From IMG/VR virus record IMGVR_UViG_3300031963_012969: 64,000 nucleotides of DNA; one strand, 5' to 3'. Below the pieces are notes generated by a model. It was not told the origin of the DNA. It worked only from the letters and a program-made list of their open reading frames with translations, and made no database searches. The position numbers and the translations under genes were made by a program. How positions within the stretch are numbered: position 1 is the stretch's first letter; each line of letters opens with the position of its first letter. The stretch comes from a virus. Shown in pieces: positions 1 to 25,022 of this stretch.

Positions 1-2022
1 AAATTGCTTTTTCTTCTCTGGAGTCTCTATTTTCTGGATTATATCCGAAAAATTACTTTCTACTTCTTTTTCTTGGTCCTGTATTTGATCAGTAAATGTA
101 TATTTAGATTCTTTAAGTCTTTTCTTGAACTCTTGTTTTTTTTCTGGAGTTTCTATTGTATCTATGATGTCAGAAAATTCTGAGTCTATTTTAGAGTCTA
201 CTGTAGACTCAACGTCATCAAATTTTTGATATAATTTGGACCCCTTTAGTTTCTGTATTTTTTCTGTAAAATTTTGTTTTTCTTCTGTAGTATTTAAATA
301 TCGTATTTCATTTGAGAACTTAGACTCTATTTCTTTTACATCATTTTTATTTCTGCGCTCAGATGTATTGCTATCCTCATTTATATGAATTTTCTGTTCT
401 TTATTTATTTTTTGTAATTCCTGACTGAATTGTTTTTTTTCTTCTTCTGTTCCGAATTTCTCTATTACGTTAGATAATTGATCTAGTGTGCTAGTGGCCT
501 TATTCCTTGATTCTGTAGTTATTCTAGGCTGTGTACCTGGGGTCTTATTTATAGAGTTAAAAACCCTTGGATAATTTTCTTGTATGCTATTTTTCTCGTT
601 TTCGTTTATTTTTCCTTGTCGCTCAGCCCTAGATAATACGTCTCTGACTAATTTTGATGGTTCTGTTATGTCTATCGACCTTTTAGATTGCTTGAGTATT
701 GTTTCCTTTTGATTATTGAATGTTTCTATCTCTTGTTTTGTTCCATGCTTCTCTATAATTTTTTGTACCTGGTTTATAGTGGTATCCAGTTTTGGCGTAT
801 CAGCGATTTCTACCGAAGATTCTGGTAAATATGGTGATTCGGTTCTAGTCCTTTTATCTATTTCTTTTATTATTCTATCTACTTTGTCGGTCTTATTTGT
901 GACATTATTGGTATTTGTAACGTTATCTGTATTTGTGACATTATTGGTATTTGTAACGTTATCCGTATTTGTTACGTTATCTGTGCTCTTTGTAACGTTA
1001 TCCGTATTTGTTACGTTACTGATGTTTTCAGTGTTTTGTTGATTTAATGTGTTTATTGCTTCAAGTGCTTCGGAGTACTTAGATATTTCATCTCTGTCGT
1101 TGTCGCTTAGCTTTCCTTCTGTTCCGGCTCTTTCTATTACGTCTTTAGCTAATTTAACCGGTGCCGTTATATTTATTTTATTTGGATCTGTAATACCATT
1201 AGATAGAATATTTTGAGCTTTAGCGTGCTCTTTCCTAGCCTGGTCTATTTCTTGAGCCCTTTGCGGTGTGGGTCCGTATGGCAGTGATGGTCTTTTTAAT
1301 ACCTCTCCAGCTAATTTAGATAAATTACTATCTTTTGATTGCTGGGATCGATCAGTTATTTCGCCCATGAATCCGCCAAATTTTCTGTTAAATGCGGCCA
1401 TGTTTTGAAAAGTTTCCGCTCTACTAAATCCACGTGACTTTGAGTAATCCCAATTACCGTCCTTATCAGACATCAAATTGCTAACATTTCTTACTATGTT
1501 TGCGGCGTGTACAGCATTTGCCTCAGCGTTTCTTATGCCAGGTCCGGCCATATTTTCGGTAAAGTTACCCATTACAACACCAAAAGCATCTGTCATGCTT
1601 CCACCAGGAGTATATTGATCGGCAAACTCTTGAAATAATCTGTTTTGCCCTAAGTCACCTAATCCACTTAACATTGGATTTGCTGCCAATAAAGATGGCT
1701 TTGCTAAATCAAATACTCTGTGTCGCTCTTGCATTGAGGTGTACTGATAGTCGGACACAGAGGGCCTCTTGAAAGACCCAAGCATAGGTCTCCCGCCGTT
1801 AAATGATGACACCATTAAATTAATCATCATATCAAGCATCGGGTTACCTGTAGCGATTGATGAAGCTGGGGCAAAACCCCTATTTGCCTCATTTCTTGCT
1901 ATGTCTATGGGAGACATAGATGGATACCCATATGGTAGATTGATTCCTGGAGGTATTTGCGAGTTTAATCCACCAATTTCTCCAATTTGCCGCTGATTAT
2001 TCAATATATCGTATGGATTCAC
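1..2022 (-). CDS. Tape-measure-like protein, N-terminal part (runs off window start)
   Basis: Not in ORF track. Hand translation from GTG at 2022 (VNPYDILNNQRQ...) stays open to position 1, with helical charged repeats (IEKFGTEEEKKQF, IDTIETPEKKQEF). Lies directly after a frameshifted chaperone pair, the canonical tape-measure position. Confidence 0.7.
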   Translation of the reverse strand, partial: MNPYDILNNQRQIGEIGGLNSQIPPGINLPYGYPSMSPIDIARNEANRGFAPASSIATGNPMLDMMINLMVSSFNGGRPMLGSFKRPSVSDYQYTSMQERHRVFDLAKPSLLAANPMLSGLGDLGQNRLFQEFADQYTPGGSMTDAFGVVMGNFTENMAGPGIRNAEANAVHAANIVRNVSNLMSDKDGNWDYSKSRGFSRAETFQNMAAFNRKFGGFMGEITDRSQQSKDSNLSKLAGEVLKRPSLPYGPTPQRAQEIDQARKEHAKAQNILSNGITDPNKINITAPVKLAKDVIERAGTEGKLSDNDRDEISKYSEALEAINTLNQQNTENISNVTNTDNVTKSTDNVTNTDNVTNTNNVTNTDNVTNTNNVTNKTDKVDRIIKEIDKRTRTESPYLPESSVEIADTPKLDTTINQVQKIIEKHGTKQEIETFNNQKETILKQSKRSIDITEPSKLVRDVLSRAERQGKINENEKNSIQENYPRVFNSINKTPGTQPRITTESRNKATSTLDQLSNVIEKFGTEEEKKQFSQELQKINKEQKIHINEDSNTSERRNKNDVKEIESKFSNEIRYLNTTEEKQNFTEKIQKLKGSKLYQKFDDVESTVDSKIDSEFSDIIDTIETPEKKQEFKKRLKESKYTFTDQIQDQEKEVESNFSDIIQKIETPEKKKQF
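895..1017 (-). repeat. Degenerate 18-bp tandem repeat encoding (NVTNTD/N) x ~7
   Basis: Units such as gtatttgtaacgttatct and gtatttgtgacattattg, in frame within the tape-measure-like ORF. Confidence 0.9.
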
Positions 2023-2079
2023 TATATTACTATATCTTTAATTTATTTAACCAAAAAGACAAAATTCATAAATGATTTA

Positions 2080-2400
2080 TTACTTCATGTCTGGGAACAT
2101 CTTTTTATATTCTTCTATTAACTCATCATTTGTTTTCATTTTCTTTGATTCTGGCTTAATAAGTTTTATGTATGGATAGCAAGATTCTATAAATTTATTA
2201 AAATTTTCTGTCCTATTTGAATTAGCTTTATTTATATTTTCTGGAGATATGAAATTCATTCCACCTAGAACACTTATCTTTGTTGTAAGTATCTCCATGT
2301 AATTTTCATGCTCTAATCCTCCACGAGCCATTTCAAGCCTAACTCTCTCGTAAAGAGAAGGCATGTCATCTGCAGACTTATTACCAGTCAAACCCCGCAA
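2080..2400 (-). CDS. Tail assembly chaperone, C-terminal (GT-like) part reached by -1 frameshift
   Basis: Weak TTG start; the frame stays open upstream to a slippery site in the preceding gene. Confidence 0.7.
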   Translation of the reverse strand: MRGLTGNKSADDMPSLYERVRLEMARGGLEHENYMEILTTKISVLGGMNFISPENINKANSNRTENFNKFIESCYPYIKLIKPESKKMKTNDELIEEYKKMFPDMK

Positions 2401-2445
2401 AAAGGCCTGTCTGGTTAGGAACCTTTTGCGGGTTTCGAAAAATTT
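2390..2445 (-). promoter_or_regulatory. Programmed -1 ribosomal frameshift signal
   Basis: In-frame heptamer A AAT TTT (2445-2439) followed 3 nt later by the stem AAACCCGCAAAAGG / CCTTTTTGCGGGGTTT. Confidence 0.75.
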
Positions 2446-2972
2446 ACATCAAAAGCTTCTTTCGCAAGGTCATACAATTTTTGATTAAATTGTGTCATCA
2501 TTCCCATTAATATATATAAACTAGACGAAGATAATGAACCTACATAACTTTTATCTATAATCGCAAGTAAATTAAAGTCTTTCATTTCCCATACGCTTGA
2601 TGGGTATTCTTTTATTTGCTCCACCCCATTTACAGATGCTAACTGATAGTATAAGCATCCAAGATTAAATAAATTTATATATTCCTGAACCGAATACAGC
2701 AATCCATCATTATATATTTTGTCTACCTGTCTTGAGATAATATCAGTTTCTTTTTTTGTTTTATCCTTAAATTCTACATTAATTTTAAGTTTTTTGTTTT
2801 CAAATTTTTGCCTAAAAACATTTCCTGTTGCTAGGCACTCGGCATAAAGATCTCTATCTTTTTCCGTTATTTCTAGCCTAGGTAACTTAAGTGATGAATT
2901 AGCTGTTTCGTTCCCCTCTATCGTTGGGATAGCGGACTCTTTTATTGATTGTAGTGTTTCTTTTTGTTCCAT
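2415..2972 (-). CDS. Tail assembly chaperone (G-like)
   Basis: 185 aa, upstream of the tape-measure-like gene, ends just after a slippery sequence. Confidence 0.7.
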   Translation of the reverse strand: MEQKETLQSIKESAIPTIEGNETANSSLKLPRLEITEKDRDLYAECLATGNVFRQKFENKKLKINVEFKDKTKKETDIISRQVDKIYNDGLLYSVQEYINLFNLGCLYYQLASVNGVEQIKEYPSSVWEMKDFNLLAIIDKSYVGSLSSSSLYILMGMMTQFNQKLYDLAKEAFDVNFSKPAKGS

Positions 2973-2976
2973 ATTT

Positions 2977-5367
2977 TTACGAATGATATTTTATTTCTGA
3001 ATATTTTAATTTTTCAAATTTACCGCCTTCTTCTTTTTGTTCTTTATAAATCTTGGGGGTTCCATCTTCTGATACATTTTCCTCTTTGTATGTTATCCAA
3101 CATTCTTTAGAGCCATCCAAGTATTCTTTTCCTGGCCATGCCATTTCATCGTACCTGTCTTTATCTGATGAATGGTCCCATGTACTTAAATTGTCTTTAT
3201 ATTGCCTTTGCCAAAAAGATTCAAACCATAAATGCTCTAATGTATTATATTCTTTTACTCTTCTATATCTCCAGTCTATATCTGGGTAGTCTTCTGTCAA
3301 CCACGGACTTCTGCAGTCTCTAATTATCTTAGGCTGTGGAACTTCTTCAGATATTGCTCCGAACGCTGAATATCTTTTGTGCTCCTCTGGAGGAATTTTT
3401 ATCGGCTCCTTTAATGTAAGCACATGTGGATAGTATCTTTTTGATGCGTGCATCCCATTTGACATTACATGGTCAATTGCAATAAGGCTCTTTTCAGCCA
3501 TACAGTAACCCTTAGTGTATGCAGTTTCTTCGAATACACCAAATTGTCCGCACTGTACAGATCCTGCATTGACCATGACCATCCCCCTCCTTTTTGGGGG
3601 GGTTCCATCTTCTGTATACAGAAAATGAACATTATCTGCCCAATGTAATGAAGCGCTAGATCTAACCAGAACAAATGGGCCGGTTTCATCATTCGGCCCC
3701 ATAATTGCAACGGCTACGTCAGCCACAGAGTTAATTACTGGAGCCCTTGAAAGAACATTACCATTAGTTCTTAAAACTATTCCAGATGAATGATATTCAT
3801 CTCCCTGCTTTTCTATTACGCTAGGTCCAGTACTGTTGAGTGCTGTTAATTGTATGCTCCCCCTCTTTGAGTCTATGAGGGTGTGCATACCGGATCTAAC
3901 TCTAATATTTCCTTCTGTCGTGTGTAATTCAGCAGATTTTTTGCTTTTCATTATTAGATCATGTCCAGCAATAGTTATTACATTTTTTCCTGATATTATT
4001 TCCAGGTCTTTTACAGAAGTTAATACAAGCTTACCGCCCCTTAATTCTATGCTGGATCCCCAGGCATCTCTAAGCAATACAGATCCATCAGGTAATACTC
4101 CACAAAACGCCTCTCCCTCTCTTGATTGCTGATAGTCTGGGATTCCTTTAATATCTTGTTTTATTTGATTTACTTTACCAAATGAACAATACTGAGACCC
4201 GCCCATTTCAAGTTTCTTGCCTGGCTCTGGCTCTGGGTCTTTCCAGTCTTTTTCATATTTTTCGTATCTTTTAAATCTATATCCACCAGACATTTGCCAT
4301 GACACATAGTCCCTGGCCATACAACCAAAAGCAGCTGGATGTTGATCTTCTGGGGCTATCTTGAAACCTTTTCTAGATTTATTGTCATAAATTTCTTTAT
4401 CACCTTTTCCAGTAAAGTCGTCTTCTTGTTTTTGTTGCTTAGGTAAATATATACCATTCAATTTTTGCATCCAAGTTGATGAAGTAGTGCAAATAGATTG
4501 TATACCTAATTCATCAAACCATGTGTCAGAGTGAACAGTTCCGTCTTTAATGCTTTTGTTTGACTCTATTGCAACCCCCGAAGACAGCCATCCAGATGTT
4601 AATCTGTTTGTGTGATTTTTTCTTTGGTCTTCTACAAATGATTTAAGATCTGGAGAAAATAATATTTCTAGATTACTTCTTCCAAAGTCACAAAATCCCC
4701 TTAACTTAAAAGATGAATTATATATTTGGGCATTGTGCGCAACAACATCTAATAAATCATCTATTGAATTTAAAGTAACCGACACAAGATTTCCAGCCTG
4801 TGTCCTGTAATAATATTTTCCATGTATTCTCCCTACATGATTTTCTGATATTGAAGAAACTTCACCAGGGATTACATCACTCGGAATAGATGTTTTATCT
4901 GCCTCTAATTTAAGCTCATCGCACTCAAAGGTAGAGGGTTTACCTATGGAAAAAAAGGTCTGCTTATATTCTTTAAAGATTGATGGTGTTATTCTGGATC
5001 CCTTTATTGATTCACCTGGCATTAAAACAGCCGCTATTATCACCCCATATGTTGTGTCTTGCCCCTTTGAAACTATAACATGGTCACCTATTTGAGGCGA
5101 ATAAATTTCTGTTACAGCGCTAACCGAACCGAAACTTGTGCAATTATACAAACATCTTATATAAGCATTGAAACCAACTGACACTAAAGCTGTATTATTT
5201 TCTGGCCAGCTATCTACAACTCTTCCAATTAACACAGAAAATTGTGAGTATTGGTTCGGTTCTCTGTCTACATAGTCGCTGTTAACAGCATTTATAGGAT
5301 CAGATGGAGACGGCATGCCTGAAGACATTGACCGAAAATTTGGAGAAGTTGAGTTTCTTTGTGCCAT
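2977..5367 (-). CDS. Baseplate spike/hub protein (gp5/VgrG/gpV-like)
   Basis: N-terminal OB-fold-like segment (GRVVDSW...PQIGDHVIV) and beta-helix-like run (GSSIELRGGKLVLTSVKDLEIISGKNVITIAGHDLIMKS); tail module. Confidence 0.6.
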   Translation of the reverse strand: MAQRNSTSPNFRSMSSGMPSPSDPINAVNSDYVDREPNQYSQFSVLIGRVVDSWPENNTALVSVGFNAYIRCLYNCTSFGSVSAVTEIYSPQIGDHVIVSKGQDTTYGVIIAAVLMPGESIKGSRITPSIFKEYKQTFFSIGKPSTFECDELKLEADKTSIPSDVIPGEVSSISENHVGRIHGKYYYRTQAGNLVSVTLNSIDDLLDVVAHNAQIYNSSFKLRGFCDFGRSNLEILFSPDLKSFVEDQRKNHTNRLTSGWLSSGVAIESNKSIKDGTVHSDTWFDELGIQSICTTSSTWMQKLNGIYLPKQQKQEDDFTGKGDKEIYDNKSRKGFKIAPEDQHPAAFGCMARDYVSWQMSGGYRFKRYEKYEKDWKDPEPEPGKKLEMGGSQYCSFGKVNQIKQDIKGIPDYQQSREGEAFCGVLPDGSVLLRDAWGSSIELRGGKLVLTSVKDLEIISGKNVITIAGHDLIMKSKKSAELHTTEGNIRVRSGMHTLIDSKRGSIQLTALNSTGPSVIEKQGDEYHSSGIVLRTNGNVLSRAPVINSVADVAVAIMGPNDETGPFVLVRSSASLHWADNVHFLYTEDGTPPKRRGMVMVNAGSVQCGQFGVFEETAYTKGYCMAEKSLIAIDHVMSNGMHASKRYYPHVLTLKEPIKIPPEEHKRYSAFGAISEEVPQPKIIRDCRSPWLTEDYPDIDWRYRRVKEYNTLEHLWFESFWQRQYKDNLSTWDHSSDKDRYDEMAWPGKEYLDGSKECWITYKEENVSEDGTPKIYKEQKEEGGKFEKLKYSEIKYHS

Positions 5368-5381
5368 AAACGATTTAAATT

Positions 5382-5418
5382 AAAATAGGCAATGCGAAAA
5401 AATCACATTGCCTATTTA
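5382..5418 (-). terminator. Intrinsic terminator-like hairpin after the tube genes
   Basis: aaaataggcaatg...cattgcctatttt perfect inverted repeat. Confidence 0.7.
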
Positions 5419-5460
5419 TATTTAATTCTTTGATTGTGTAAAGAATTTTCTTAACTAAAA

Positions 5461-5988
5461 TTAAGCTCCAGCAGCCAATGCAACAGATCTTGCATTAGTA
5501 GCCGAGTTTAATTCTTCATTAGGGTCTTTCTTGGGGACTGCTTCTTGCATAGCAACGAATGTAGCAACTAAGTTTTCTCTTATTAAGAGATCTTGAGTTG
5601 TCATCGAAACTCCGTATTGCGTAATAAACACGCCAGTAAGAGTTTTTCCTCTAAGCGTAGCGGATCCTTGTCCATAGCAACCAGAGGAAGCTTGAATGAT
5701 AACCGTGCCGCCACCTGCGCAAGAATTGAACAACGCTCTATCAAAGTCAACATTACTGAGGATTTTGCCCACAGTTAATTGACCTTGTGCACGCCCAAGT
5801 TGCATGTAAGCCGAATTTGATCCGAGTTCAAACAATTGAGTAACTTGTTGTTGATAACTGCACTCGACGTTTTGAACCAGAGCTCCAACACCAGATGCTG
5901 TTGTTCCCGACACAGTCATTACTGCTGTATCAGATGAGTAAACACCACCAACTGGTACTACTGTTCTTCCGAAAAGGTCATTAGCCAT
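5461..5988 (-). CDS. Tail tube protein, copy 2 (C-terminal extension)
   Basis: About 80% identical to the neighbour by manual alignment; YQQQVTQLFELGS tube-like motif; follows the sheath. Confidence 0.75.
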   Translation of the reverse strand: MANDLFGRTVVPVGGVYSSDTAVMTVSGTTASGVGALVQNVECSYQQQVTQLFELGSNSAYMQLGRAQGQLTVGKILSNVDFDRALFNSCAGGGTVIIQASSGCYGQGSATLRGKTLTGVFITQYGVSMTTQDLLIRENLVATFVAMQEAVPKKDPNEELNSATNARSVALAAGA

Positions 5989-6015
5989 AATTTTATTTCT
6001 TTCTTTATTATATTT

Positions 6016-6462
6016 TTATTCTTCCATGCTCGTGAACATTGCCACGAGGTTTTCTCTTATGAGAAGGTCTTGAGTTGTCATTGAAACGCCATACTGAGTT
6101 ACAAATACACCCTTAAGTGTTTTTCCTTTTAATTTTGAGCTACCCTGCCCCTGACAGCCGGATGAGGCCTGTATAATACAAGTTGCTCCCCCAGCGCAAG
6201 AATTGAACAATGCTCTATCAAAGTCTTGATTGCTAAGAATTTTTCCTATAGTCAAATTACCTTGTGCACGTCCAAGTTGCATGTAGACCTGATTAGATCC
6301 TAGCTCAAATATTTGGTTTACTTGTTGTGTATATGTAGCTTCAACATTTTGGACTAAGGCACCAGCACCTGAGCCAGCTGCCCCGGATACGGTCATTACT
6401 GCCGTATCCGAGGAGTAAACTCCGCCGACTGGTACTACTGTTCTTCCAAAGATGTCAGCCAT
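6016..6462 (-). CDS. Tail tube protein, copy 1
   Basis: 148 aa immediately downstream of the sheath; YTQQVNQIFELGS. Confidence 0.8.
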   Translation of the reverse strand: MADIFGRTVVPVGGVYSSDTAVMTVSGAAGSGAGALVQNVEATYTQQVNQIFELGSNQVYMQLGRAQGNLTIGKILSNQDFDRALFNSCAGGATCIIQASSGCQGQGSSKLKGKTLKGVFVTQYGVSMTTQDLLIRENLVAMFTSMEE

Positions 6463-6485
6463 GGTTTTTCTTTAGTTTTACTAAA

Positions 6486-9242
6486 TTAGATAACAGTAAG
6501 TTTAACTTGAATCACGTTGACTGGGTAAGGCAACGTAAGATTGATGTCAACAAGAACCCTGGTTCTGATCAATGGATCAGTACCAATGTTCGCTATCTCA
6601 AAGTTTAACAATTGAGGACCAGCCTTGACAGTGACAGCTCTTCCTTGTAAGAAGGTGAGTCTATCAACAAGTCTTGTCTTAAGAAGCTGCTGGAAGAACG
6701 GGTGATTGTTCCATTGTCCGATGAATTGTCTCAAGTCTTCTCTGATTAACTTAGAAATCGAGTCAAGATTTGTAGTAATAGACACTTCAGCCATATTGTC
6801 GTCAGTGTAATCTGTCGTCAATTGATGTCTGTTGAATATTTCACCACCATTTCTGTCTTGGTCGATGATCCATGTTCCACCGCCAGCAATTATATTGAGG
6901 TCGGTCATAGTGAAGTAAGGAGTGGACCTATCAGCTCTTGTGAAACCATTTAAGATAACATTAGTAACTGGTTGATGAGGAGCAACGCCAGACTTAAGTC
7001 CAGCAATCGCTGCTGCAGCAAAATACCCAGCAACAGAAAGGTCCCCGTCTCTAAGAATATCTGGCCAGACATTCACAACACGTCTAACTCCGAGTCTTTC
7101 GGATGAAGCAGCAATTTTTTCGGCTTGCTCACGTTTTGTTAAATTTCTGACTATTTGAATTCTGCGAGGCGACGATTCGGATCCAACTGGAGCCGAGAAC
7201 GCAGGAGACTCTAATCTGAGTGTTTGCTCGTCCAGAACTTCAACAACCTTGAAGGATTGATAAACATCATTACCTAATGCGTCAACCGTGAAGTTGGATC
7301 TAAATGTATCTCCTGCTCTAACTCTGTCCGTAAGGAGCGAGGCACCAGGGACAGTGACTCTGTTGTAGACAGCTGGTTCAGAGCCAGGAGCCATTTCAAC
7401 ATAGCCAGTCCATGCTGTTGCACCATCAGCCAATTTATCATAGAGCATTGTAACTGGAGAGAAAGATTGATTGACAATTGCAATTCTTTCGCGTGCAACC
7501 ATTTCATCACTTGCGCTCATTACATGCCCTTTAGCGGCCTGTATAATTCTCTCGTCGCTAGACATTGGAACAATATAGTATGCGGTAACCTCATTAAGGG
7601 TAGCGTCAAACGCTCTATTGTATCCATCAAGGTTGTCTTCATCAACTGGGACAAAGTAAACTCTAGTGCCACCAGAATTTTGAAGAGCCTTAAACACGCC
7701 ATAAGCAATTGGATTCTCTGGAACCAATTTTCCGCATTGAGCTGGTATTAACGATGGCTCAGAGATCGAATTAATTCTAAGAGCATTTTGAAGCTGAAGT
7801 GCTTTGTAACCAATTAATACTCTAGCGCTCTTAATCTCAAGATTAGATAGAGCTCCGCTCAATTCAGTGAATTGAGAGTCATTGATATAAATATCGCTCT
7901 GAAGAGCTAAAGTAGCGTCACCAGTTTCATCGTCAACATCAAGAGACCAAGCATTGTCACCAGGTCTAGGATAACCAGCACGTGGAATTACGATTGAGTC
8001 AACATTGTGGCAGAATTCAACAGATATATCTGTGGAGCTGCTAACACTAGATGGAACTTTGTCGAGCAACTTAATTGTTCTAGCCTCACCAGCTGTAGAA
8101 GCGGTGACAGGGATATAGAATATATCGCCAGTTCTCAAGCCGTCATTCTCGGATACATCAAATTTTCCGACGAGACCCAAAGATCCAAGGAAGAAGTTTC
8201 CATTACTTGTATCAACTTTTTGAGGAGGAAGTGCATCAATCGCATTATTAGTTGTAACAACAACTTCAAGATTTTGACTCCATGTTCCGCCTTTAATTAC
8301 TTCAACTTCGTAAACAGTGTCATATAAACCTGCGTAATCTTTTCCTGGATCAGCGTTGTCAATCGATGGTAAATTTTGTTCAAATTTTTTCGCAACCGAA
8401 ACGACATACGAATCTCCAACGACAAACCCGTTAGTAGAACTAAAGTCAATAGAAAGACCATTTGTTCCAACGGCAAGTGATATACCGGAAATAGAAGAAA
8501 CAGCAACATTGTCGCCATTTAAGCTAGTGACCGAAAACTTAGCAGCAGATCCATTTCCGCCAGCTGTTACTGTTATTGTATATACATCGTCTAATCTACC
8601 GCTTCTGAGATCTCCAGAATAATCACTAGAAACACTTTGAGCAATAGATCTACCGCTACCGGTTGCTTCATTTATTGCGGCAACAGTAAAGGCATCACTA
8701 GCGTAAAATTTATTACTGATGTCTGCAGAGATTGTGCCTATTTGTGCATCAACTCTATCACGGATAATGTCAAACACTCTAGTTTTGAGTTGTGTTACAC
8801 CACCAGAAGAGACAATAACAGAGTCACCAACTTTGACGTCTCTATTCTTGAATGCAGAATTTCTACTCGCGGAAATTTCTGGATATGCAACGAATCCGTC
8901 TGCAGTATCAGATATCTTAAGCAGATTTTGGCTGCTTCCGACATTAATAACTGGAGAGGAGAGTTGAGCATATTTAGCTGTGACGTCTTTTAGATTCACT
9001 AAAACTGAATCTCTTTCAAGGATGTCTAAATCTGTGTATCCTTTGATTTTGTATGTTTGGTCAACTAAATTGTTAAAAGCTCCATAATCAACGAAAGCTT
9101 CGTCTTCTGGATCATTAACGTCTCTGACCAATTTTTGGGGTCCTACGATCACTGCAATAAGATCTTGAGTAGCTGCTGCTGGGAGCGCCACAAAATCTTG
9201 CTGAACGATCACCTGTGGGAGTAAGTATGTTCTTTTAGCCAT
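6486..9242 (-). CDS. Contractile tail sheath protein
   Basis: 918 aa; N-terminal YLLPQVIVQQ; C-terminal AAAIAGL...HQPVTN...HQLTT...EVSI...LPYPVNVIQV sheath signature. Confidence 0.9.
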   Translation of the reverse strand: MAKRTYLLPQVIVQQDFVALPAAATQDLIAVIVGPQKLVRDVNDPEDEAFVDYGAFNNLVDQTYKIKGYTDLDILERDSVLVNLKDVTAKYAQLSSPVINVGSSQNLLKISDTADGFVAYPEISASRNSAFKNRDVKVGDSVIVSSGGVTQLKTRVFDIIRDRVDAQIGTISADISNKFYASDAFTVAAINEATGSGRSIAQSVSSDYSGDLRSGRLDDVYTITVTAGGNGSAAKFSVTSLNGDNVAVSSISGISLAVGTNGLSIDFSSTNGFVVGDSYVVSVAKKFEQNLPSIDNADPGKDYAGLYDTVYEVEVIKGGTWSQNLEVVVTTNNAIDALPPQKVDTSNGNFFLGSLGLVGKFDVSENDGLRTGDIFYIPVTASTAGEARTIKLLDKVPSSVSSSTDISVEFCHNVDSIVIPRAGYPRPGDNAWSLDVDDETGDATLALQSDIYINDSQFTELSGALSNLEIKSARVLIGYKALQLQNALRINSISEPSLIPAQCGKLVPENPIAYGVFKALQNSGGTRVYFVPVDEDNLDGYNRAFDATLNEVTAYYIVPMSSDERIIQAAKGHVMSASDEMVARERIAIVNQSFSPVTMLYDKLADGATAWTGYVEMAPGSEPAVYNRVTVPGASLLTDRVRAGDTFRSNFTVDALGNDVYQSFKVVEVLDEQTLRLESPAFSAPVGSESSPRRIQIVRNLTKREQAEKIAASSERLGVRRVVNVWPDILRDGDLSVAGYFAAAAIAGLKSGVAPHQPVTNVILNGFTRADRSTPYFTMTDLNIIAGGGTWIIDQDRNGGEIFNRHQLTTDYTDDNMAEVSITTNLDSISKLIREDLRQFIGQWNNHPFFQQLLKTRLVDRLTFLQGRAVTVKAGPQLLNFEIANIGTDPLIRTRVLVDINLTLPYPVNVIQVKLTVI

Positions 9243-9264
9243 AATTTTATTTTTATATTATTTA

Positions 9265-9945
9265 TTAGATTTTCTGTTCTGACAAGATTTTTTTGGCAGA
9301 GTCAGAGTAAATTAGGTTTGTAAACACAGATTTAATCCTAAGGTTTTCTGTTTTTACTCCTAATATCTCTTGATATTTTAACTCACATAAAAAATCTGTC
9401 ACGAAAAACTCTTTATATTCTTCTATTTTTTGTGTTTCGGTCATCTGTGACGCTCTGAATTTCTCAAAGCAAAAAGCTTCAGATATTTGATGTCCAAACG
9501 CCGATACAAAATATTTTACTTCTGTAGCCAGTTCTAAACTGGATAGCATATTCTCTGATATACATCTAAATCTTATTACAGATTCAACTATATTCAACAT
9601 ATAAGTTGTGGAATTTTGTAGATCGTGTAAAGAATAATCTCCAAGAGATTGCTGTGGATATGCTATTTGTTTAATACCAACAAGTATTGCAGGTCTTTTT
9701 CCAATCACAGACCTATTCGCGTTATGCTCTTCGCTTATCCACACATTTGATTCTGCTTGGTCTTCTTTCCATAAATACTTAGAGAAATCAGTTGATATTC
9801 TATTTTCTGTACCAAAAAACTGCTTAAGGGTGGCCACAAAAACAGATATTGCATATATAGGACTTTTTATTCTATGTCCTGTGTGCGGTTTTACCGGATA
9901 AAGCCTGACTCCGTCTGGAGCAATCAATGTATCGTCTGTATCCAT
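9265..9945 (-). CDS. Tail terminator/completion protein (putative)
   Basis: KRPAILV motif, size, and position between neck genes and sheath. Confidence 0.55.
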   Translation of the reverse strand: MDTDDTLIAPDGVRLYPVKPHTGHRIKSPIYAISVFVATLKQFFGTENRISTDFSKYLWKEDQAESNVWISEEHNANRSVIGKRPAILVGIKQIAYPQQSLGDYSLHDLQNSTTYMLNIVESVIRFRCISENMLSSLELATEVKYFVSAFGHQISEAFCFEKFRASQMTETQKIEEYKEFFVTDFLCELKYQEILGVKTENLRIKSVFTNLIYSDSAKKILSEQKI

Positions 9946-9947
9946 TT

Positions 9948-10721
9948 TTATATTTTTATTTTGTGGGATGGGTCGGTAACTGGAAGCCTTGAAGCTAAAA
10001 CTTGCTGTTTTATTGTCATTGTTCTGAATTCTATTTCTTCCACTTTTCTTACCTCATACCTAGAATTTGTAAGTGGCGCAACCCAAATGTCTTGAGGTTT
10101 AATAACCGGAAACGGCATAGTAAAAAATAAAACATTGTCAGGTTCCGATATGCCAGTCTCTTCAACTGATAATTGTTTTGTAGTTGTTGGTGGGGCGTCT
10201 GCATATGCAACATGCATTTCTATTGCGGGCCAGTATCCCCCTTTAAATTTTTTTCCGAGCCCAGACTCGTCTTCAGTTCCAACTGGAGAACCTAATATGG
10301 GGTGAACATTATCTGCTACCTCCCCAAATGTTTTTAATCTTAACAAGAATCCTGGGATACCAGAAAATTTTTTAAGTTCTATATTCCATCTTCTAAGCAT
10401 TTCTCTGTATCTAAGAAAATCTTGTTTACTTAATGTATTATTATAAAAACTTGGAGCACTTATGTCCTGAACTCTTCCACCTTCTTTTGCAACAGCCCTA
10501 AACCATATTGGGTCTGTATTGGACAATAATCTATCAGTAAACTTCAGGGTAACGTCTGATACATTAATTACAGTCTTTAACGTTTTCCATGGACCACTTT
10601 CATTTGGTCCCCACTCTATATCAAAACTGAACAATCCGTTACCTATTCCAAACCATGATATATCATAACTCCCCAATAATGTAGAGGGGGAAACGCAAAA
10701 TTTTGTAAATTTGAACGCCAT
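9948..10721 (-). CDS. Head closure/neck protein (putative)
   Basis: N-terminal FN3-like segment and GKKFKGGYW...PVIKPQDIWV...RYEV; synteny. Confidence 0.55.
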   Translation of the reverse strand: MAFKFTKFCVSPSTLLGSYDISWFGIGNGLFSFDIEWGPNESGPWKTLKTVINVSDVTLKFTDRLLSNTDPIWFRAVAKEGGRVQDISAPSFYNNTLSKQDFLRYREMLRRWNIELKKFSGIPGFLLRLKTFGEVADNVHPILGSPVGTEDESGLGKKFKGGYWPAIEMHVAYADAPPTTTKQLSVEETGISEPDNVLFFTMPFPVIKPQDIWVAPLTNSRYEVRKVEEIEFRTMTIKQQVLASRLPVTDPSHKIKI

Positions 10722-10722
10722 T

Positions 10723-11178
10723 TTAGAATGGTCTTAAATAACTATATGGCCCAGAAATAAAGCCAAAAGCTTGTTCAGCGTTTTTTGTCTTCTTTATTTG
10801 AGTGATACGTTGGTCAAACTCCTGCATCATTACATTAGCAATAGATAGGTATTCTCCAGTCTTCTGTTTATCTTGTATAGTTGTTCCATCTTTAGTTGAA
10901 AAGTCTAACCTATTTCTAGTGTAGTTCATCGCCTTTGATCTAAGCAATGATGCAGCAGTTCCGAGTAGCATTTCATATCTATACGGAAAATTTTCGACTG
11001 TATATACGTCAACCATTGGAAGTGTTGAATTATATTTATCTACAGTTAACTGCATACCAGAATGTATTTCTTCGTCAGAAAATTCAACAGAATCCAACAA
11101 GAAATTCTCTGAGGCTGTGCGATCCATCATGAAGAATCGCACATCCTGTGGAGTTACTATCTGGACTTCTGGGGTCAT
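10723..11178 (-). CDS. Head-tail adaptor/neck protein (putative)
   Basis: VRFFMMDRT..N.LL...EFSDEEI helical adaptor-like pattern; synteny. Confidence 0.55.
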   Translation of the reverse strand: MTPEVQIVTPQDVRFFMMDRTASENFLLDSVEFSDEEIHSGMQLTVDKYNSTLPMVDVYTVENFPYRYEMLLGTAASLLRSKAMNYTRNRLDFSTKDGTTIQDKQKTGEYLSIANVMMQEFDQRITQIKKTKNAEQAFGFISGPYSYLRPF

Positions 11179-11183
11179 TATTT

Positions 11184-11672
11184 TTATTTTCCTTGGTAAT
11201 ATTTCAATAATTCACCAATTTGTTGTATGTTCATTTGTGGAACACCTATCGACAACGCTGCAGCTTGTGCATTTTGTTTACTTTTCTGTAAGGTGTTTTC
11301 AACTTTGTCTTTGAATGACAATATAGGAATATTTTTATCTACATTAGCGTTCGCAACCTGCCTTGCAGCATCTAGTCCCGTTTGGAACAAAGAAGGGGCC
11401 GCCGCAGCACCTAGTCCGCCAACAACACCACCAGTTGCACCACCAAGCGCCATGCCCTTCAGAATTTGTTTAACTCTACTTTTTTTGTTTCCTTCTTTGT
11501 CGTATCCTGGGTCACCTGCTTGACTTATGCCACCGATAAGTGCACCGAAACCAGCTCCACCTGCTGCTGCAGCTGGAAGTCCTTTTACCACTGATTCGAT
11601 TTGATTGAATGGTTTATATTCATTGACGGCTTTCGACAATGAATCCATATACGTATTTGCGTATTTATTCAT
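11184..11672 (-). CDS. MNKY-leader glycine-zipper protein (putative internal virion protein)
   Basis: MNKYANTY start; two GxxxG-rich hydrophobic helices. Confidence 0.6.
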   Translation of the reverse strand: MNKYANTYMDSLSKAVNEYKPFNQIESVVKGLPAAAAGGAGFGALIGGISQAGDPGYDKEGNKKSRVKQILKGMALGGATGGVVGGLGAAAAPSLFQTGLDAARQVANANVDKNIPILSFKDKVENTLQKSKQNAQAAALSIGVPQMNIQQIGELLKYYQGK

Positions 11673-11683
11673 AAATTATTGTA

Positions 11684-12055
11684 TTATTCTCTATATAGAG
11701 GAGGTAAAAGTAAGCCACCGAGAGCACCAAGGCTGGCCCCACCTGCTATTCCTAGTGGGATAGAAACTGCCTGCACTCTTGCTTTTGGCATTCTCATTTC
11801 GTTAGCAAACGAAATACCACTTAATAAATTACCTCCATCTGAATTAGCTAGAGCAAAATCTCTTATTACACCAGAGCCCATTCCTCCAGCAAGTCCACCA
11901 GCACCAGCCCCAATTGCAGCCCCAGTAACCGTGTCCCTTAGCATTCGTTTGATTTTTTGAATAGTTGTTAATTTTTTTGTTTTATTTTCGGTAGAGGGTA
12001 GATCTTTTAGTTCTTCCCCGACTTTCTGTATATAAATGTTTGTATATTTATTCAT
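11684..12055 (-). CDS. MNKY-leader glycine-zipper protein
   Basis: MNKYTNIY start; GAAIGAGAGGLAGG and GIAGGASLGALGGLL. Confidence 0.6.
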   Translation of the reverse strand: MNKYTNIYIQKVGEELKDLPSTENKTKKLTTIQKIKRMLRDTVTGAAIGAGAGGLAGGMGSGVIRDFALANSDGGNLLSGISFANEMRMPKARVQAVSIPLGIAGGASLGALGGLLLPPLYRE

Positions 12056-12068
12056 AAGTTATTTTATA

Positions 12069-12608
12069 TTATCCAAACCGCTTTTTAAAAGCAGCTAAAT
12101 TATTTACTGTTTCTGATCTATTGAATCCATGGGATTTTGAGTAATCCCATTGACCATCTGAACCAGCCATAGCTGAGTCCATACTATTTAAAAAGTTTTT
12201 AGACAATTCAGAATTTCTTTCCATGTTCTTTATTCCATACCCTCCAAGAGAGTTCCCCAGACTTGATTTATATGCATCAACCCTGCTTCCACCTGGAGTT
12301 ATTTTATCCAACAATGCTTGAAAAATAGTGTTCTTGCCTAATCTACCAAACATTTTTAGATTTGGATTTGAAGCTAATATAGATGGAATATTTTTACTGG
12401 CAATGCGCCCTCTAGCCTTCATTGACTCATAAGCGTAGTCAGAAACATTAGGTCTTTTCATTAATCCAAATTCTTGCAGCTTAGCATAAAGTGGAGATAT
12501 TTGTCCATGATTTGCTGGATTCCCGGCAGACACAAAAGACCTTGAGTGATCTAAATTTAACCCAGATTGGATTAATTCATTTAAGTAATTTTGTGAGTAC
12601 TTATTCAT
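12069..12608 (-). CDS. MNKY-leader protein paralogous to the N-terminal domain of the tape-measure-like protein
   Basis: Shares KRPxVSDY, TPGGS and WDYSKSxGFxRxET..N.AAF...FG with the ORF at 1-2022. Confidence 0.8.
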   Translation of the reverse strand: MNKYSQNYLNELIQSGLNLDHSRSFVSAGNPANHGQISPLYAKLQEFGLMKRPNVSDYAYESMKARGRIASKNIPSILASNPNLKMFGRLGKNTIFQALLDKITPGGSRVDAYKSSLGNSLGGYGIKNMERNSELSKNFLNSMDSAMAGSDGQWDYSKSHGFNRSETVNNLAAFKKRFG

Positions 12609-13027
12609 TAAATAGAACTTATTATATGCTTGTACTCAATATTGTAAAAGTCAAAAATTTTTAAAGCTTCTTCGCTTCTTTGGTATACCTCTTTGTATAT
12701 AACTTTTTTTATTCCATGTGATGCTATATTCAATGCACATGCTGGGCACGGCATCAAGGTCGAGGCCAATAAGAAACCTTCTCCATTGTTTACGAGTGAC
12801 AATGCATTTGTCTCTGCATGTATTACCAATGGCAGTCGTTTTTCTCTGTCTTCCCAAAAATCATCTGGAGCTACCTTTCCTGGGGCTAAACCATTATAGC
12901 CAGTTGAAATAACTCTATTATTTTTATCAAGAATGCACACACCAACCCTTTTCCATGGATCCTCGCTTCTTGTTCTGGCGACCTCAGCTATTTGCAGTGC
13001 GTACTCTTCCCAATTAATTCTTTTCAT
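12608..13027 (-). CDS. dCMP deaminase
   Basis: HAETNA and PCPAC zinc motifs, RSEDP..RVG, TGYNG. Start moved to MKRINW because the longer ORF overlaps tRNA-Glu. Confidence 0.92.
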   Translation of the reverse strand: MKRINWEEYALQIAEVARTRSEDPWKRVGVCILDKNNRVISTGYNGLAPGKVAPDDFWEDREKRLPLVIHAETNALSLVNNGEGFLLASTLMPCPACALNIASHGIKKVIYKEVYQRSEEALKIFDFYNIEYKHIISSI

Positions 13028-13047
13028 TTTTGTTGTGTTGTGTGTTT

Positions 13048-13122
13048 TGGCATCTCCAAGGGGATTTGAACCCCTACTCTTTCCGTGAAAGGGAAAGGTG
13101 CTAACCATTACACTATAGAGAC
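13048..13122 (-). tRNA. tRNA-Glu(TTC)
   Basis: Cloverleaf; anticodon arm TTTCC-CTTTCAC-GGAAA; GGTTCAAATCC; encoded CCA. Confidence 0.93.
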
Positions 13123-17145: not shown

Positions 17146-18474
17146 TTAATTCAACATGAAAGCATTGAATATTACATCATCATTAGCGGATATATCGTTT
17201 AAAGCAGCAACCTTGTAGGCTAGGTATTGTCTTACCATAGCACGAGACTCTGGCTTTATAGAAGTTTTTTTATCATTTAACTCCTCGTTGTAAAGAACTG
17301 CTTTTTTTATTTTTTCGTCCTGAACATCGGGAGACAAGATAAATTTGTTTATTTCGTTTTTTGTGTTTTGGGTAATGGAAGTATTCCCATTACAAGATGA
17401 ATCAAAATCATGAATAGATGCAATTTTTTCTAGATTAGAAGCCTCTTTCAACTCCAATCTTACACACTCACTTATCACATCCTCTGTTTCGTCTATTAAA
17501 TTTTTGAAATCATTAAATCTGGATCCAGAAGCAAGTTTATAAAAAACCCTAAACGGAAGTATAGATGCATTTTTAGATAAACAGCTAAACATATCTTTTG
17601 GGTTCTTTTTCTGTAGCTCCCTTATTGCAGACTCAGATAGATCTGTTTTATCTAAAACATTTTTAGGGGCATTAATGCCGACTGCATCAATATATTTTTG
17701 TATCTTAGATAGCTTTTCGGCTATAGCTAACTTCGGGGTAGATAGAATTCTGTTTTCTATTAATTCCGCTAATTCAGCCCCGCCCATTGGCTCACTTGTG
17801 TCAATACCAGCAATTTTAGCTAAATCCATAGCGATCATGTCTGCTCCGCGATCAACAAATGATATATCATTCCAATACCCATCTCTATTATATACAAAAC
17901 ATTTTCTTCCATCTGGCAATATCTTGTTTCTTCCAAATGGGTGAGGTGCCGCTTTTTTAACGTGAACACAGTATTCAGATGGCGCTTTACTTACATTTCC
18001 GCATATAGAACAAACATCATTATCACAATGCCACCCCATAGAAAACTTAACGTCTCCACCTCTTTCAACTCTACCAAGCCAATCAGCACACTTATCTATA
18101 TTAGCTGCAATAGCTAATTCTACTCTTCCCATTTTTTCGTTATAAGCAGATTTAATTACGTCTCCATCTCTCTGCTCATGTGGGACTTTACTATTATGAT
18201 GCCTGTATAATTTAGCTTTCTTCACGAAAGTTGGATGAGATTTTTTACAAACCTCCTCCTCAAAAGCATCAAAGTTTAAATTACTTCCAGTCTTCTCAAA
18301 TGACCCTAAAGCAATTAGATGAATTATAGCGTGATTTTTAATTGGCTCTATGTCTCCCCAGCTATGTCTAACAGACGAAGCTATCTTATCTCTCCTTTGT
18401 GGATCGTCAATTATTTGAACCAGATATTCTGCATCTGGATATTCGAATGAGTCGTTGAAAATTAATTTTCTCAT
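17146..18474 (-). CDS. Prohead maturation protease with zinc-finger insert
   Basis: N.N.DAF...LYRHHN (His), FSMGW (Ser), CSICGN...CVH, DISFV..GAD; position in head module. Confidence 0.8.
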   Translation of the reverse strand: MRKLIFNDSFEYPDAEYLVQIIDDPQRRDKIASSVRHSWGDIEPIKNHAIIHLIALGSFEKTGSNLNFDAFEEEVCKKSHPTFVKKAKLYRHHNSKVPHEQRDGDVIKSAYNEKMGRVELAIAANIDKCADWLGRVERGGDVKFSMGWHCDNDVCSICGNVSKAPSEYCVHVKKAAPHPFGRNKILPDGRKCFVYNRDGYWNDISFVDRGADMIAMDLAKIAGIDTSEPMGGAELAELIENRILSTPKLAIAEKLSKIQKYIDAVGINAPKNVLDKTDLSESAIRELQKKNPKDMFSCLSKNASILPFRVFYKLASGSRFNDFKNLIDETEDVISECVRLELKEASNLEKIASIHDFDSSCNGNTSITQNTKNEINKFILSPDVQDEKIKKAVLYNEELNDKKTSIKPESRAMVRQYLAYKVAALNDISANDDVIFNAFMLN

Positions 18475-23281: not shown

Positions 23282-24121
23282 TTACCTTGTTCTTTTATTT
23301 CTGTTTAAGAAATTTTGATAATCTTGAATGTATCTTTTGTCGGCGTATATTTGATTTGGAGTTACATTTGAATTCTCTTTGTATATTTGTCTAACTATGT
23401 CAGCCCTTCTTCTATCTGCAACAGATTTAGAATTGTAGCTTCCCATGACTTTAGACAAAAAGGCATCAGTTGGACCAGTAGATGTATTTACTCCAGCAGC
23501 AGATTGTTGATCTTTCCTGACTGGCTGCGCTCTTCTTACTTCAACCATTCCGTTTGTGGTATTCATTTTTGGGGACGTACCCACTGCTTTAGGTAAAAAG
23601 CCAGGTGCATCGTTTATAGCGGAATTTATATTTGCCTCGTTCTGAGTATTATATTGCTGTGTAGCATTTTCAACTAAAGAAGACCCTGAATTTCCTCCAA
23701 AAAATGAAACAGCGCCAGATGGAAGATTCTTATTTAAGCTACCCTTCATTGGAGACGCATCTGCAACCGGTAAATTATTTTTGAGGTAATTTCTTCTTTT
23801 TTCTAATCTTTTATTTTCGAGTCCCATTATAGCGCCTCTTGCAGCATCAGTGGGGCTTTCTTTACCGTACAGGTTGTACGCAAAATCTCTTGCTTTTCCA
23901 AGCATAGTATCCGTTCCAGTAAGTTGATCATAGAGTCCAACTCCACCAGCTCCAGTAACAGCTGCGCCGCCAATTCCAGCCATTAGCTTAGGGTTAGAGG
24001 AAATAGCCCCTCTTGCAGCGCTTATGGCCGGAGAAATAAATGGTTTAGCAGCACTAAATATAGATGCTGTTTTGGCTTCTTTAGTTAATGTATTTTTATA
24101 TGTTTCGGTATATTTATTCAT
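23282..24121 (-). CDS. MNKY-leader protein
   Basis: MNKYTETYKNTLTKEAKTAS leader followed by a Gly-rich helix. Confidence 0.6.
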   Translation of the reverse strand: MNKYTETYKNTLTKEAKTASIFSAAKPFISPAISAARGAISSNPKLMAGIGGAAVTGAGGVGLYDQLTGTDTMLGKARDFAYNLYGKESPTDAARGAIMGLENKRLEKRRNYLKNNLPVADASPMKGSLNKNLPSGAVSFFGGNSGSSLVENATQQYNTQNEANINSAINDAPGFLPKAVGTSPKMNTTNGMVEVRRAQPVRKDQQSAAGVNTSTGPTDAFLSKVMGSYNSKSVADRRRADIVRQIYKENSNVTPNQIYADKRYIQDYQNFLNRNKRTR

Positions 24122-24123
24122 AG

Positions 24124-24462
24124 CTAATTTAATGATGCAGTGGTTAAACCACTTAATTCTTGTAATCTATCTCTTAGCAATCTTGCATAATCAGACTGAA
24201 GGGATCTAGTAAAAACTGTATCTTTTTTAACGCCGTCTTCTAGTATCATGTCCTTTAGACTATTTGCGGTTCCGGTAATCTTATCTATTGGCTTAGTCAG
24301 GTCAATCATTTTTCCATGTGTTCTAGAGAAAATAGATTTAGGAGTATTTTTTACGGCATTATATGCGGTTCCAATAAGTTTAAGTGCCATATCACCTCTA
24401 CCAGCCGTTTTATTAAGCTCTATGTCAAGCCTACTCAAATATGTATGTGTATCTTTGTTCAT
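24124..24462 (-). CDS. MNK-leader protein
   Basis: MNKDTHTYLSRLDIELNKTAG leader. Confidence 0.6.
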   Translation of the reverse strand: MNKDTHTYLSRLDIELNKTAGRGDMALKLIGTAYNAVKNTPKSIFSRTHGKMIDLTKPIDKITGTANSLKDMILEDGVKKDTVFTRSLQSDYARLLRDRLQELSGLTTASLN

Positions 24463-25022
24463 CTATATTTAATGCTTCTTATGTTTATGTCACTCCATAA
24501 ATTATTTTGAGTTTCGTCTTGATTTTGTGGCTGATCTCCAAATGCCGAATCAATACCTGTATCAATAGCGTTATTGATAGCCAATCCAGGTGTTGCAACA
24601 CCAAATACGGTTCCAATATCTTTAGCAGATATATTCTTGATTCCTCCCCTTTCCTTCGCTATTGCAGTGGCTGTGTTCCATGGCTGAGTAAATGTATTAC
24701 TCATTATCGACATTGCCTTATTTTTAATTGGCTGATTTGATTCTAATATGCCCCTATACCCTCTTGCCATTGATCCAATGCCTCCTGTAATTCCGCTACT
24801 TAGATTGCCAACGCTTTTTATTGTTTTTTGCGTTAATGGCTTTGCTGCACTAACGCCTTTTTGAATTGCGCTAGAAACTATTGGCTTGGCTGTATTTAAT
24901 AAATTTTTTACACCAGCGGAAACAATTGGTTTTGCTGCAGAAAATGCGGCCCTGGCGGCTGGCACCACAAATGCATTTTTTTGATTTAATTCATTAAAAT
25001 AGATTTTTGAGTATTTATTCAT
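24459..25022 (-). CDS. MNKY-leader protein with AKP repeats
   Basis: Start moved to MNKYSKIYFNELNQKNAF; three (A)AKPIV-like amphipathic repeats. Confidence 0.6.
   Translation of the reverse strand: MNKYSKIYFNELNQKNAFVVPAARAAFSAAKPIVSAGVKNLLNTAKPIVSSAIQKGVSAAKPLTQKTIKSVGNLSSGITGGIGSMARGYRGILESNQPIKNKAMSIMSNTFTQPWNTATAIAKERGGIKNISAKDIGTVFGVATPGLAINNAIDTGIDSAFGDQPQNQDETQNNLWSDINIRSIKYR

Follow-up and report, generated by a model that had tools for sequence, protein, structure and literature searches.

The present analysis concerns a stretch of phage DNA of 64,000 nucleotides, referred to here in its full length as the window, which comes from IMG/VR virus record IMGVR_UViG_3300031963_012969 and belongs to an uncultured, large, contractile-tailed phage. 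A small gene in this window encodes a protein of 179 amino acids (aa) that, as judged from alignments, is a chimera: a 12-residue N-terminal leader and a short variable linker are followed by a copy of a domain of about 150 residues, predicted to be all-alpha, which also stands near the N-terminus of the product of a large open reading frame (ORF) in the same window. By its position only, we accept the large ORF as the tape-measure gene of the phage, as a working identity. The small gene and the N-terminal domain of the large ORF are paralogous, and their phylogeny suggests that the domain copy has a single origin, in the common ancestor of these phages, which have retained it alongside the tape measure. 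The explanation we favour, with a probability of about one half, is that the small protein would be loaded into the phage head and leave it with the DNA behind the tape measure, binding the head-end partner of the tape measure through the fold that the two proteins have in common.

Both genes lie on the minus strand, as does every gene in the same part of the window. BLASTP aligns the 179-aa product with the open-ended 674-aa product of the large ORF at 46% identity (63/136 positions; E 9e-39), residues 47-179 of the small protein matching residues 81-216 of the large one, so the collinearity proposed in the first-pass annotation of this DNA is borne out by a significant pairwise alignment. 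The family profile matches the large ORF over residues ~17-216, and together with a multiple alignment it extends the match upstream through a common (G/R)N(P/E)AN(H/R)G motif; the extended match begins at about residue 13-28 in the small protein and at residue 17 in the large one, and nearly all of the small protein is covered by it. In this extended N-terminal part the large protein has two additional segments that are absent from the small copy, one of them a hydrophobic segment of about 20 residues (TGNPMLDMMINLM...). The linker, residues 13-32 of the small protein, shows weak collinearity with the start of tape measures, which is rich in Pro, Gly and Tyr. As had also been noticed in the first pass, the small gene terminates exactly at the domain-closing ...FG, past which the large chain continues, and the 14-mer TTTGAGTAATCCCA occurs exactly at 1439-1452 and at 12136-12149. 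Since this 14-mer encodes a conserved WDYSK motif on the minus strand, it reflects protein conservation and not recent DNA exchange; the overall nucleotide identity between the two domain copies is otherwise 57%, and the duplication is therefore old. A profile search in six frames finds exactly two copies in the window, and a related record of 131 kb likewise has two.

An exhaustive profile search over 1.84 billion representative proteins was used to survey the distribution of the domain and gave 39 hits. In about 34 of them the domain is located at residues ~10-230 of long proteins, mostly of 690-1580 aa, and these long-protein clusters also have in common a conserved C-terminal region of about 550 residues. 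The small-gene form is found in four clusters only (P0005, P0012, P0020 and P0017), all of which start with MNK(Y/F); small-gene homologues in metagenomes are 171-183 aa long. The remaining hit, P0050 (124 aa), matches over a short stretch only and was omitted from phylogenetic analysis. A maximum-likelihood tree was computed from 49 domain sequences. The small copies group together in a single clade, with a Shimodaira-Hasegawa-like approximate likelihood-ratio test (SH-aLRT) value of 98, and this clade stands in an unresolved group with the tape measures of its own carrier phages (window/L001 and L013/P0018), inside the wider tape-measure tree. Given this nesting among tape measures, the most economical history is that the ancestor of the group copied out the N-terminal domain of its tape measure a single time, from tail domain to free copy, after which both copies would have diverged in parallel. 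Formally, an older duplication followed by many losses is still compatible with this tree, the root of which is undefined. The earlier proposal of a duplicated tail domain is thus sustained as to paralogy and the nesting of the small copies, and its direction stands as the simplest reading only. The ratio of nonsynonymous to synonymous substitution rates (dN/dS) of the small gene is 0.07 against L006, the closest relative, and 0.12 against L009, indicating that the small gene is under strong purifying selection.

The structure of the small protein was predicted with AlphaFold2. A model from an alignment of 41 sequences gives a compact all-alpha domain over residues 33-179, with a predicted local distance difference test score (pLDDT) of 80-90 and a predicted template-modelling score (pTM) of 0.71; an earlier model from 14 close sequences had a pLDDT of 47 and was unusable. 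Searches with the model returned matches at noise level only (Foldseek against PDB, best E 0.94; BFVD, best E 0.54; VIA-align wide search, best Z 5.0), and the ESM Atlas gave sub-threshold rows only. Among the Foldseek and VIA-align matches there is no solved neck or tail completion chain, a best Z of 5.0 being noise for helical models. Nothing credible came from PDB sequence-profile searches with the domain or with the whole family, and Pfam and PHROGs have nothing for the small protein. The modelled domain thus appears to be without a recognisable fold relative, and we assign no fold to it. The two copies clearly differ in charge, the net charge of the domain being +10 in the small copy and +1 in the tape-measure copy, and such a strongly basic small copy is as expected for a protein that would reside in packed DNA.

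The identity of the large ORF as a tape measure is drawn from its context. The gene order runs from the tail sheath through two tube-sized paralogues, a gene for a 796-aa protein, a 185-aa ORF and a 106-aa ORF in the -1 frame to the large ORF, which is complete in the relative L001 and encodes 1807 aa there. Within the 185-aa ORF a canonical slippery heptamer, A AAT TTT, is located at 2439-2445, and the -1 frame opens one codon before it. In L001 (9575) and L013 (19415) the heptamer is found in an unchanged register, in the latter even though its proteins are only about 50% identical to those of the window. A chaperone pair with a -1 slippery site is the lambda G/GT pattern that precedes tape-measure genes. 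The genes downstream of the large ORF in L001 include a weak Baseplate_J match, and the length of full-size family members lies between 693 and 1807 aa, the added length consisting of repeats between conserved ends. The tape-measure assignment made in the first pass is therefore retained on the position of the gene after sheath, tube and chaperone pair, but no family, solved structure or cultured phage names the protein a tape measure. As to the repeats by which tape-measure length varies, we observe an 18/36-nucleotide NVTNT repeat at window positions 894-1018 and a long PERPEAPEV array in P0022; such arrays separate the N-terminal domain from the 550 conserved residues at the C-terminus. The two tube-sized paralogues (5461-5988 and 6016-6462, minus strand) stand in tandem directly after the sheath and are 81.5% identical over 146 aa, and neither has a family match.

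Another finding from this analysis is that the leader of the small protein behaves as a separate module. A start of the form MNK[YD]xxxY, with the longer consensus M-N-K-Y-x3-Y-x3-(L/V), is found in six genes of the window (Table 1), three of them between the capsid gene and the head-tail genes and the other three further upstream. When the first 14 residues are removed, no pair among the six proteins is similar (all E >0.6), which agrees with the earlier suggestion of a leader placed on unrelated neighbours; all six proteins are basic, with isoelectric points (pI) of 9.6-10.1. At related loci two to four leader genes follow the capsid gene, the gene with the tape-measure domain always being first and a conserved gene last, while the middle member changes. 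Among small-gene homologues at 50% identity, N2, K3, Y4 and Y8 are invariant or nearly so and residues 11-30 are variable. The codons of the leader differ synonymously, and selection on the leader must therefore act on the peptide; a nucleotide-level signal is ruled out by the same variation. The leader is modelled as a helix over residues 3-16 with low confidence, and on such a helix Y4, Y8 and L/V12 would share one face. By analogy with T4, we consider it an evenly balanced proposition that this leader targets the capsid.

Additional leader-bearing genes are seen in relatives. L021, the record of about 109.7 kb to which L001 belongs, has two of them far from the head block, one encoding 77 aa and starting MNKYLKTY (L021:1196-1429) and one encoding 429 aa and starting MNKYASEY (L021:1439-2728), the latter with Gly/Ala-rich hydrophobic parts and Pro/Thr-rich parts. 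L006 is without the 123-aa middle leader gene of the window and has an additional 176-aa gene with a variant leader (MSKYSSLYLNKI) upstream of its deaminase gene (L006:8798-9328). This deaminase gene, for a deoxycytidine monophosphate (dCMP) deaminase, is located in the window at 12608-13108 on the minus strand (phrog_174, E 1.4e-40), between the capsid gene and the leader genes, where its stop overlaps the start of the small gene by one base; it is kept at the same position in L006 (95%) and in L013 and L016 (56%). The 735-aa gene upstream of the second leader cluster was not identifiable as a portal gene.

The domain of the small protein also tolerates the insertion of a large enzyme. In the relative L016 (contig Ga0214921_10000842, 10001-12172) the syntenic gene encodes 723 aa, in which residues 1-164 of the small protein are followed by an SNF2 ATPase and then by the last 15 residues of the small protein. 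The insert of about 540 aa (~60 kDa) keeps the reading frame, is flanked by ...GYNRP and ETAKNLVEFKKVFG and falls exactly in the loop that precedes the final modelled helix; it is intact, with matches to PF00176 (68 bits) and PF00271 (53 bits) and with the motifs GSGKT and DEAH. The carrier part shares 95% identity with relatives that have no insert, and the GC content is 44% in the insert and 37% in the carrier. The nearest relative of the insert is found in another phage (L004:9266-11560), within a 764-aa protein whose N-terminus is different, and the window itself has no SNF2 homologue. The L004 protein has its own N-terminal extension of about 230 aa with Gly-rich hydrophobic stretches, and it may be another virion-carried form.

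Table 1. Positions of the features of the window that are discussed in the text (nucleotides of the 64,000-nucleotide stretch)
Feature	Position	Strand	Evidence
Small gene, 179 aa plus stop: leader, linker and copy of the putative tape-measure N-terminal domain	12069..12608	-	BLASTP, homologues, dN/dS
Leader, residues 1-12 (MNKYSQNYLNEL)	12573..12608	-	common to six window genes
Variable linker, residues 13-32, ends GNPANHG	12513..12572	-	alignments; pLDDT <50
Folded domain, predicted all-alpha, residues 33-179, net charge ~+10	12072..12512	-	AlphaFold2 model
Tape-measure-position gene, first 674 codons, GTG start at 2022, runs off the window	1..2022	-	
Large-protein N-terminal domain, residues ~17-216 (BLAST core 81-216 = nucleotides 1375-1782)	1375..1974	-	profile/BLASTP
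14-mer copies, encoding WDYSK on the minus strand	1439..1452 and 12136..12149	+	exact match
Leader-bearing neighbour, 123 aa, Gly-rich, pI 9.9	11684..12055	-	
Leader-bearing neighbour, 162 aa, Gly-rich, pI 9.6; conserved last cluster member in relatives	11184..11672	-	
Second leader cluster, three genes (24459-25022, 24124-24462, 23282-24121), pI 9.6-10.1	23282..25022	-	
Tail-assembly-chaperone-like pair, 185 aa and 106-aa ORF in the -1 frame	2080..2972	-	slippery heptamer
Tail sheath, 918 aa	6486..9242	-	phrog_279 tail sheath, E 2.8e-12

Several well-studied phages offer precedents for the way in which such a protein might be used. Capsid-targeting sequences of T4 are N-terminal propeptides of 10-19 residues, of which residues 4 and 7 are key to targeting (PMC9026906), and they load unrelated proteins into the head core (PMC9026906, PMC3012670). 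The proteins described here resemble T4 IPI, IPII, IPIII and Alt in that a short N-terminal leader stands on otherwise unrelated, mostly basic proteins, in that an aromatic residue at position 4 and another at position 7 or 8 are important or conserved, and in that the genes are located in the head block, with cargo sets that differ among relatives. Unlike in T4, there is no sequence homology to the internal proteins, the (L/I)-x-E cut site is not conserved, and no T4-type protease family is detected here; the presumed cargo, furthermore, is a copy of a domain of the tail protein itself, for which we found no parallel in the literature searched. In P1 the Dar proteins, of which DarB is very large, are packaged into the phage head and co-ejected with the DNA (PMC12810830), and they set a precedent for large enzymes carried in this way, of which the SNF2 variant in L016 would be another. 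They differ from the present case in that their sequences are unrelated and that Dar loading needs DarA/Hdf and not a short common leader. Head cargo addressed by a leader is already known; the literature searched has no case in which such cargo copies the head-end domain of the tape measure, is conserved in the lineage and can carry an enzyme, as would hold here.

Seen against this background, the leader would be an amphipathic docking helix, with Tyr4, Tyr8 and Leu/Val12 on one face. Like the T4 capsid-targeting sequence, it would bring into the head core, while this assembles, both the small protein and the remaining small basic proteins that have the leader. The small protein would then reside in the packed DNA and at infection exit through the tail behind the tape measure. 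[quoted passage not shown] The location in the capsid, the ejection and the partner are what we infer from the observations above; like them, the first-pass idea that the domain may assist tail passage or neck docking is drawn from analogy. We also speculate, as a doubtful extension, that the free domain is an adaptor which couples head cargo to the tape measure, on its N-terminal oligomer at the DNA end, so that leader-loaded proteins, among them the SNF2 motor in one relative, would be drawn through the tail behind it. If this were true, it would mean a physical hand-over from head contents to tail lumen, evolved from a duplicated domain with an undescribed fold.

A number of observations weigh against packaging and ejection of the small protein. 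The T4-type cut site after the leader is not conserved, since position 11 is E, K, D, H, N, V or I in orthologues; the site reads LNE in the window and LNK, LND, INH, VNN, LNV or LNI in orthologues. The candidate prohead protease, a 442-aa protein encoded at 17146-18474, is weakly identified (phrog_18299 at E 7e-4) and has no Pfam hit. The tape measure in this clade starts with M-N-P-Y, which might be a faint leader-like start on a tail protein. That the small gene including its leader is a copy of the tape-measure 5' end was considered for this reason, but the likeness is probably a coincidence, because other family members start differently (MSDFF, VFPSL, MFQNA and others). The SNF2 insertion is a single and recent event and possibly not under selection. 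Searches of Pfam, PHROGs and PDB sequence profiles match the large ORF to no tape-measure family or structure, and eight long family members give nothing meaningful in Pfam or PHROGs; tape measures do not form one sequence family, so the absence of a family match is compatible with membership. Finally, the lineage is uncultured, with no match in 50,697 phage records. In cultured phages neither the window nor the small protein nor two long family members have a match, whether in DNA or in protein; prokaryote genomes give no match, and in IMG/VR two related contigs only were found, to which scans with P0021, P0025 and alignment A4 added none.

The same data can be read in other ways. One is that the small protein is a cork on the head side, a fixed or semi-fixed part of the portal or neck channel that, by like-with-like contacts, stacks on the N-terminal ring of the tape measure and connects it with the genome end. 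Its fold is the same as that of the head-proximal domain of the tape measure, its gene stands just upstream of the presumed head-tail joining genes, and the basic charge of the domain would suit binding of a DNA end. In addition, recent work (2026) places the T4 tape-measure N-terminus near the head, where it captures the DNA end, and the tail completion protein of 80-alpha has been reported as a cork between genome end and tape measure (PMC12929629). By position, the domain can be likened to the tip of T4 gp29, as the N-terminus of a tube-filling protein for which a role at the head-tail junction is expected; unlike that tip, it is a compact helical fold of about 150 residues that occurs in about 34 protein clusters and, in addition, as a separate gene. 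We nevertheless regard the cork as unlikely. An SNF2 ATPase of about 60 kDa within the domain would not fit a channel about 4 nm wide, and the presence of such a motor without a frame break argues against a tight structural place in the neck. Five other proteins have the same leader and can hardly all be neck parts, and no fold match to a solved neck or completion protein was found, which counts as weak evidence only. The SNF2 insert and the basic shift are more easily reconciled with a protein that is packaged and ejected than with a fixed part of the neck.

Another possibility is that the free domain acts outside the virion as an assembly factor, competing with or replacing the tape-measure N-terminus at the chaperone, the tube terminator or the tube, and so tuning tail-length termination or the joining of tail to head. 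A paralogue of a binding domain is expected to bind the same partner, and throughout the clade the small copy and the tape measure are conserved side by side. Such a role would leave unexplained the leader in common with head-block proteins, the basic shift and the SNF2 insertion, and the gene is located in the head block and not beside the chaperones; we think this quite unlikely. The leader, on the other hand, might not be an address at all, being a conserved N-terminal helix for stability, membrane contact or regulation on a small protein that acts in the infected cell without being packaged. Consistent with this, no cleavage motif is conserved after the leader, and a relative has two further leader genes at a distance from its head block. 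But all six carriers in the window (6/6) are small basic proteins in the head-gene block, the gene set varies among relatives as that of T4 internal proteins does, and conservation of the protein sequence at Y4, Y8 and L12, all on one face of the helix, speaks for a docking surface, by which this possibility becomes very improbable. Loading of the small protein into the head and its exit with the DNA remain the explanation that we favour.

How proteins stored in the head exit through the tail, and what role the head-proximal end of the tape measure plays, are open questions in phage biology. The domain described here defines a family of about 34 tape-measure clusters without a cultured member. 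The 12-residue leader, together with the insertion-tolerant loop before the last helix, could be used to bring foreign proteins into phages of this kind, a use to which the T4 capsid-targeting sequence is already put. Most of all, this lineage presents a natural experiment, in which one copy of the domain stands at the head end of the tape measure and a second is a separate, strongly conserved, more basic and tagged protein. If the small protein is packaged, its partner should be the same as that of the tape-measure head end, and the search for this partner could then employ a single small soluble domain in place of a protein of 1800 residues.

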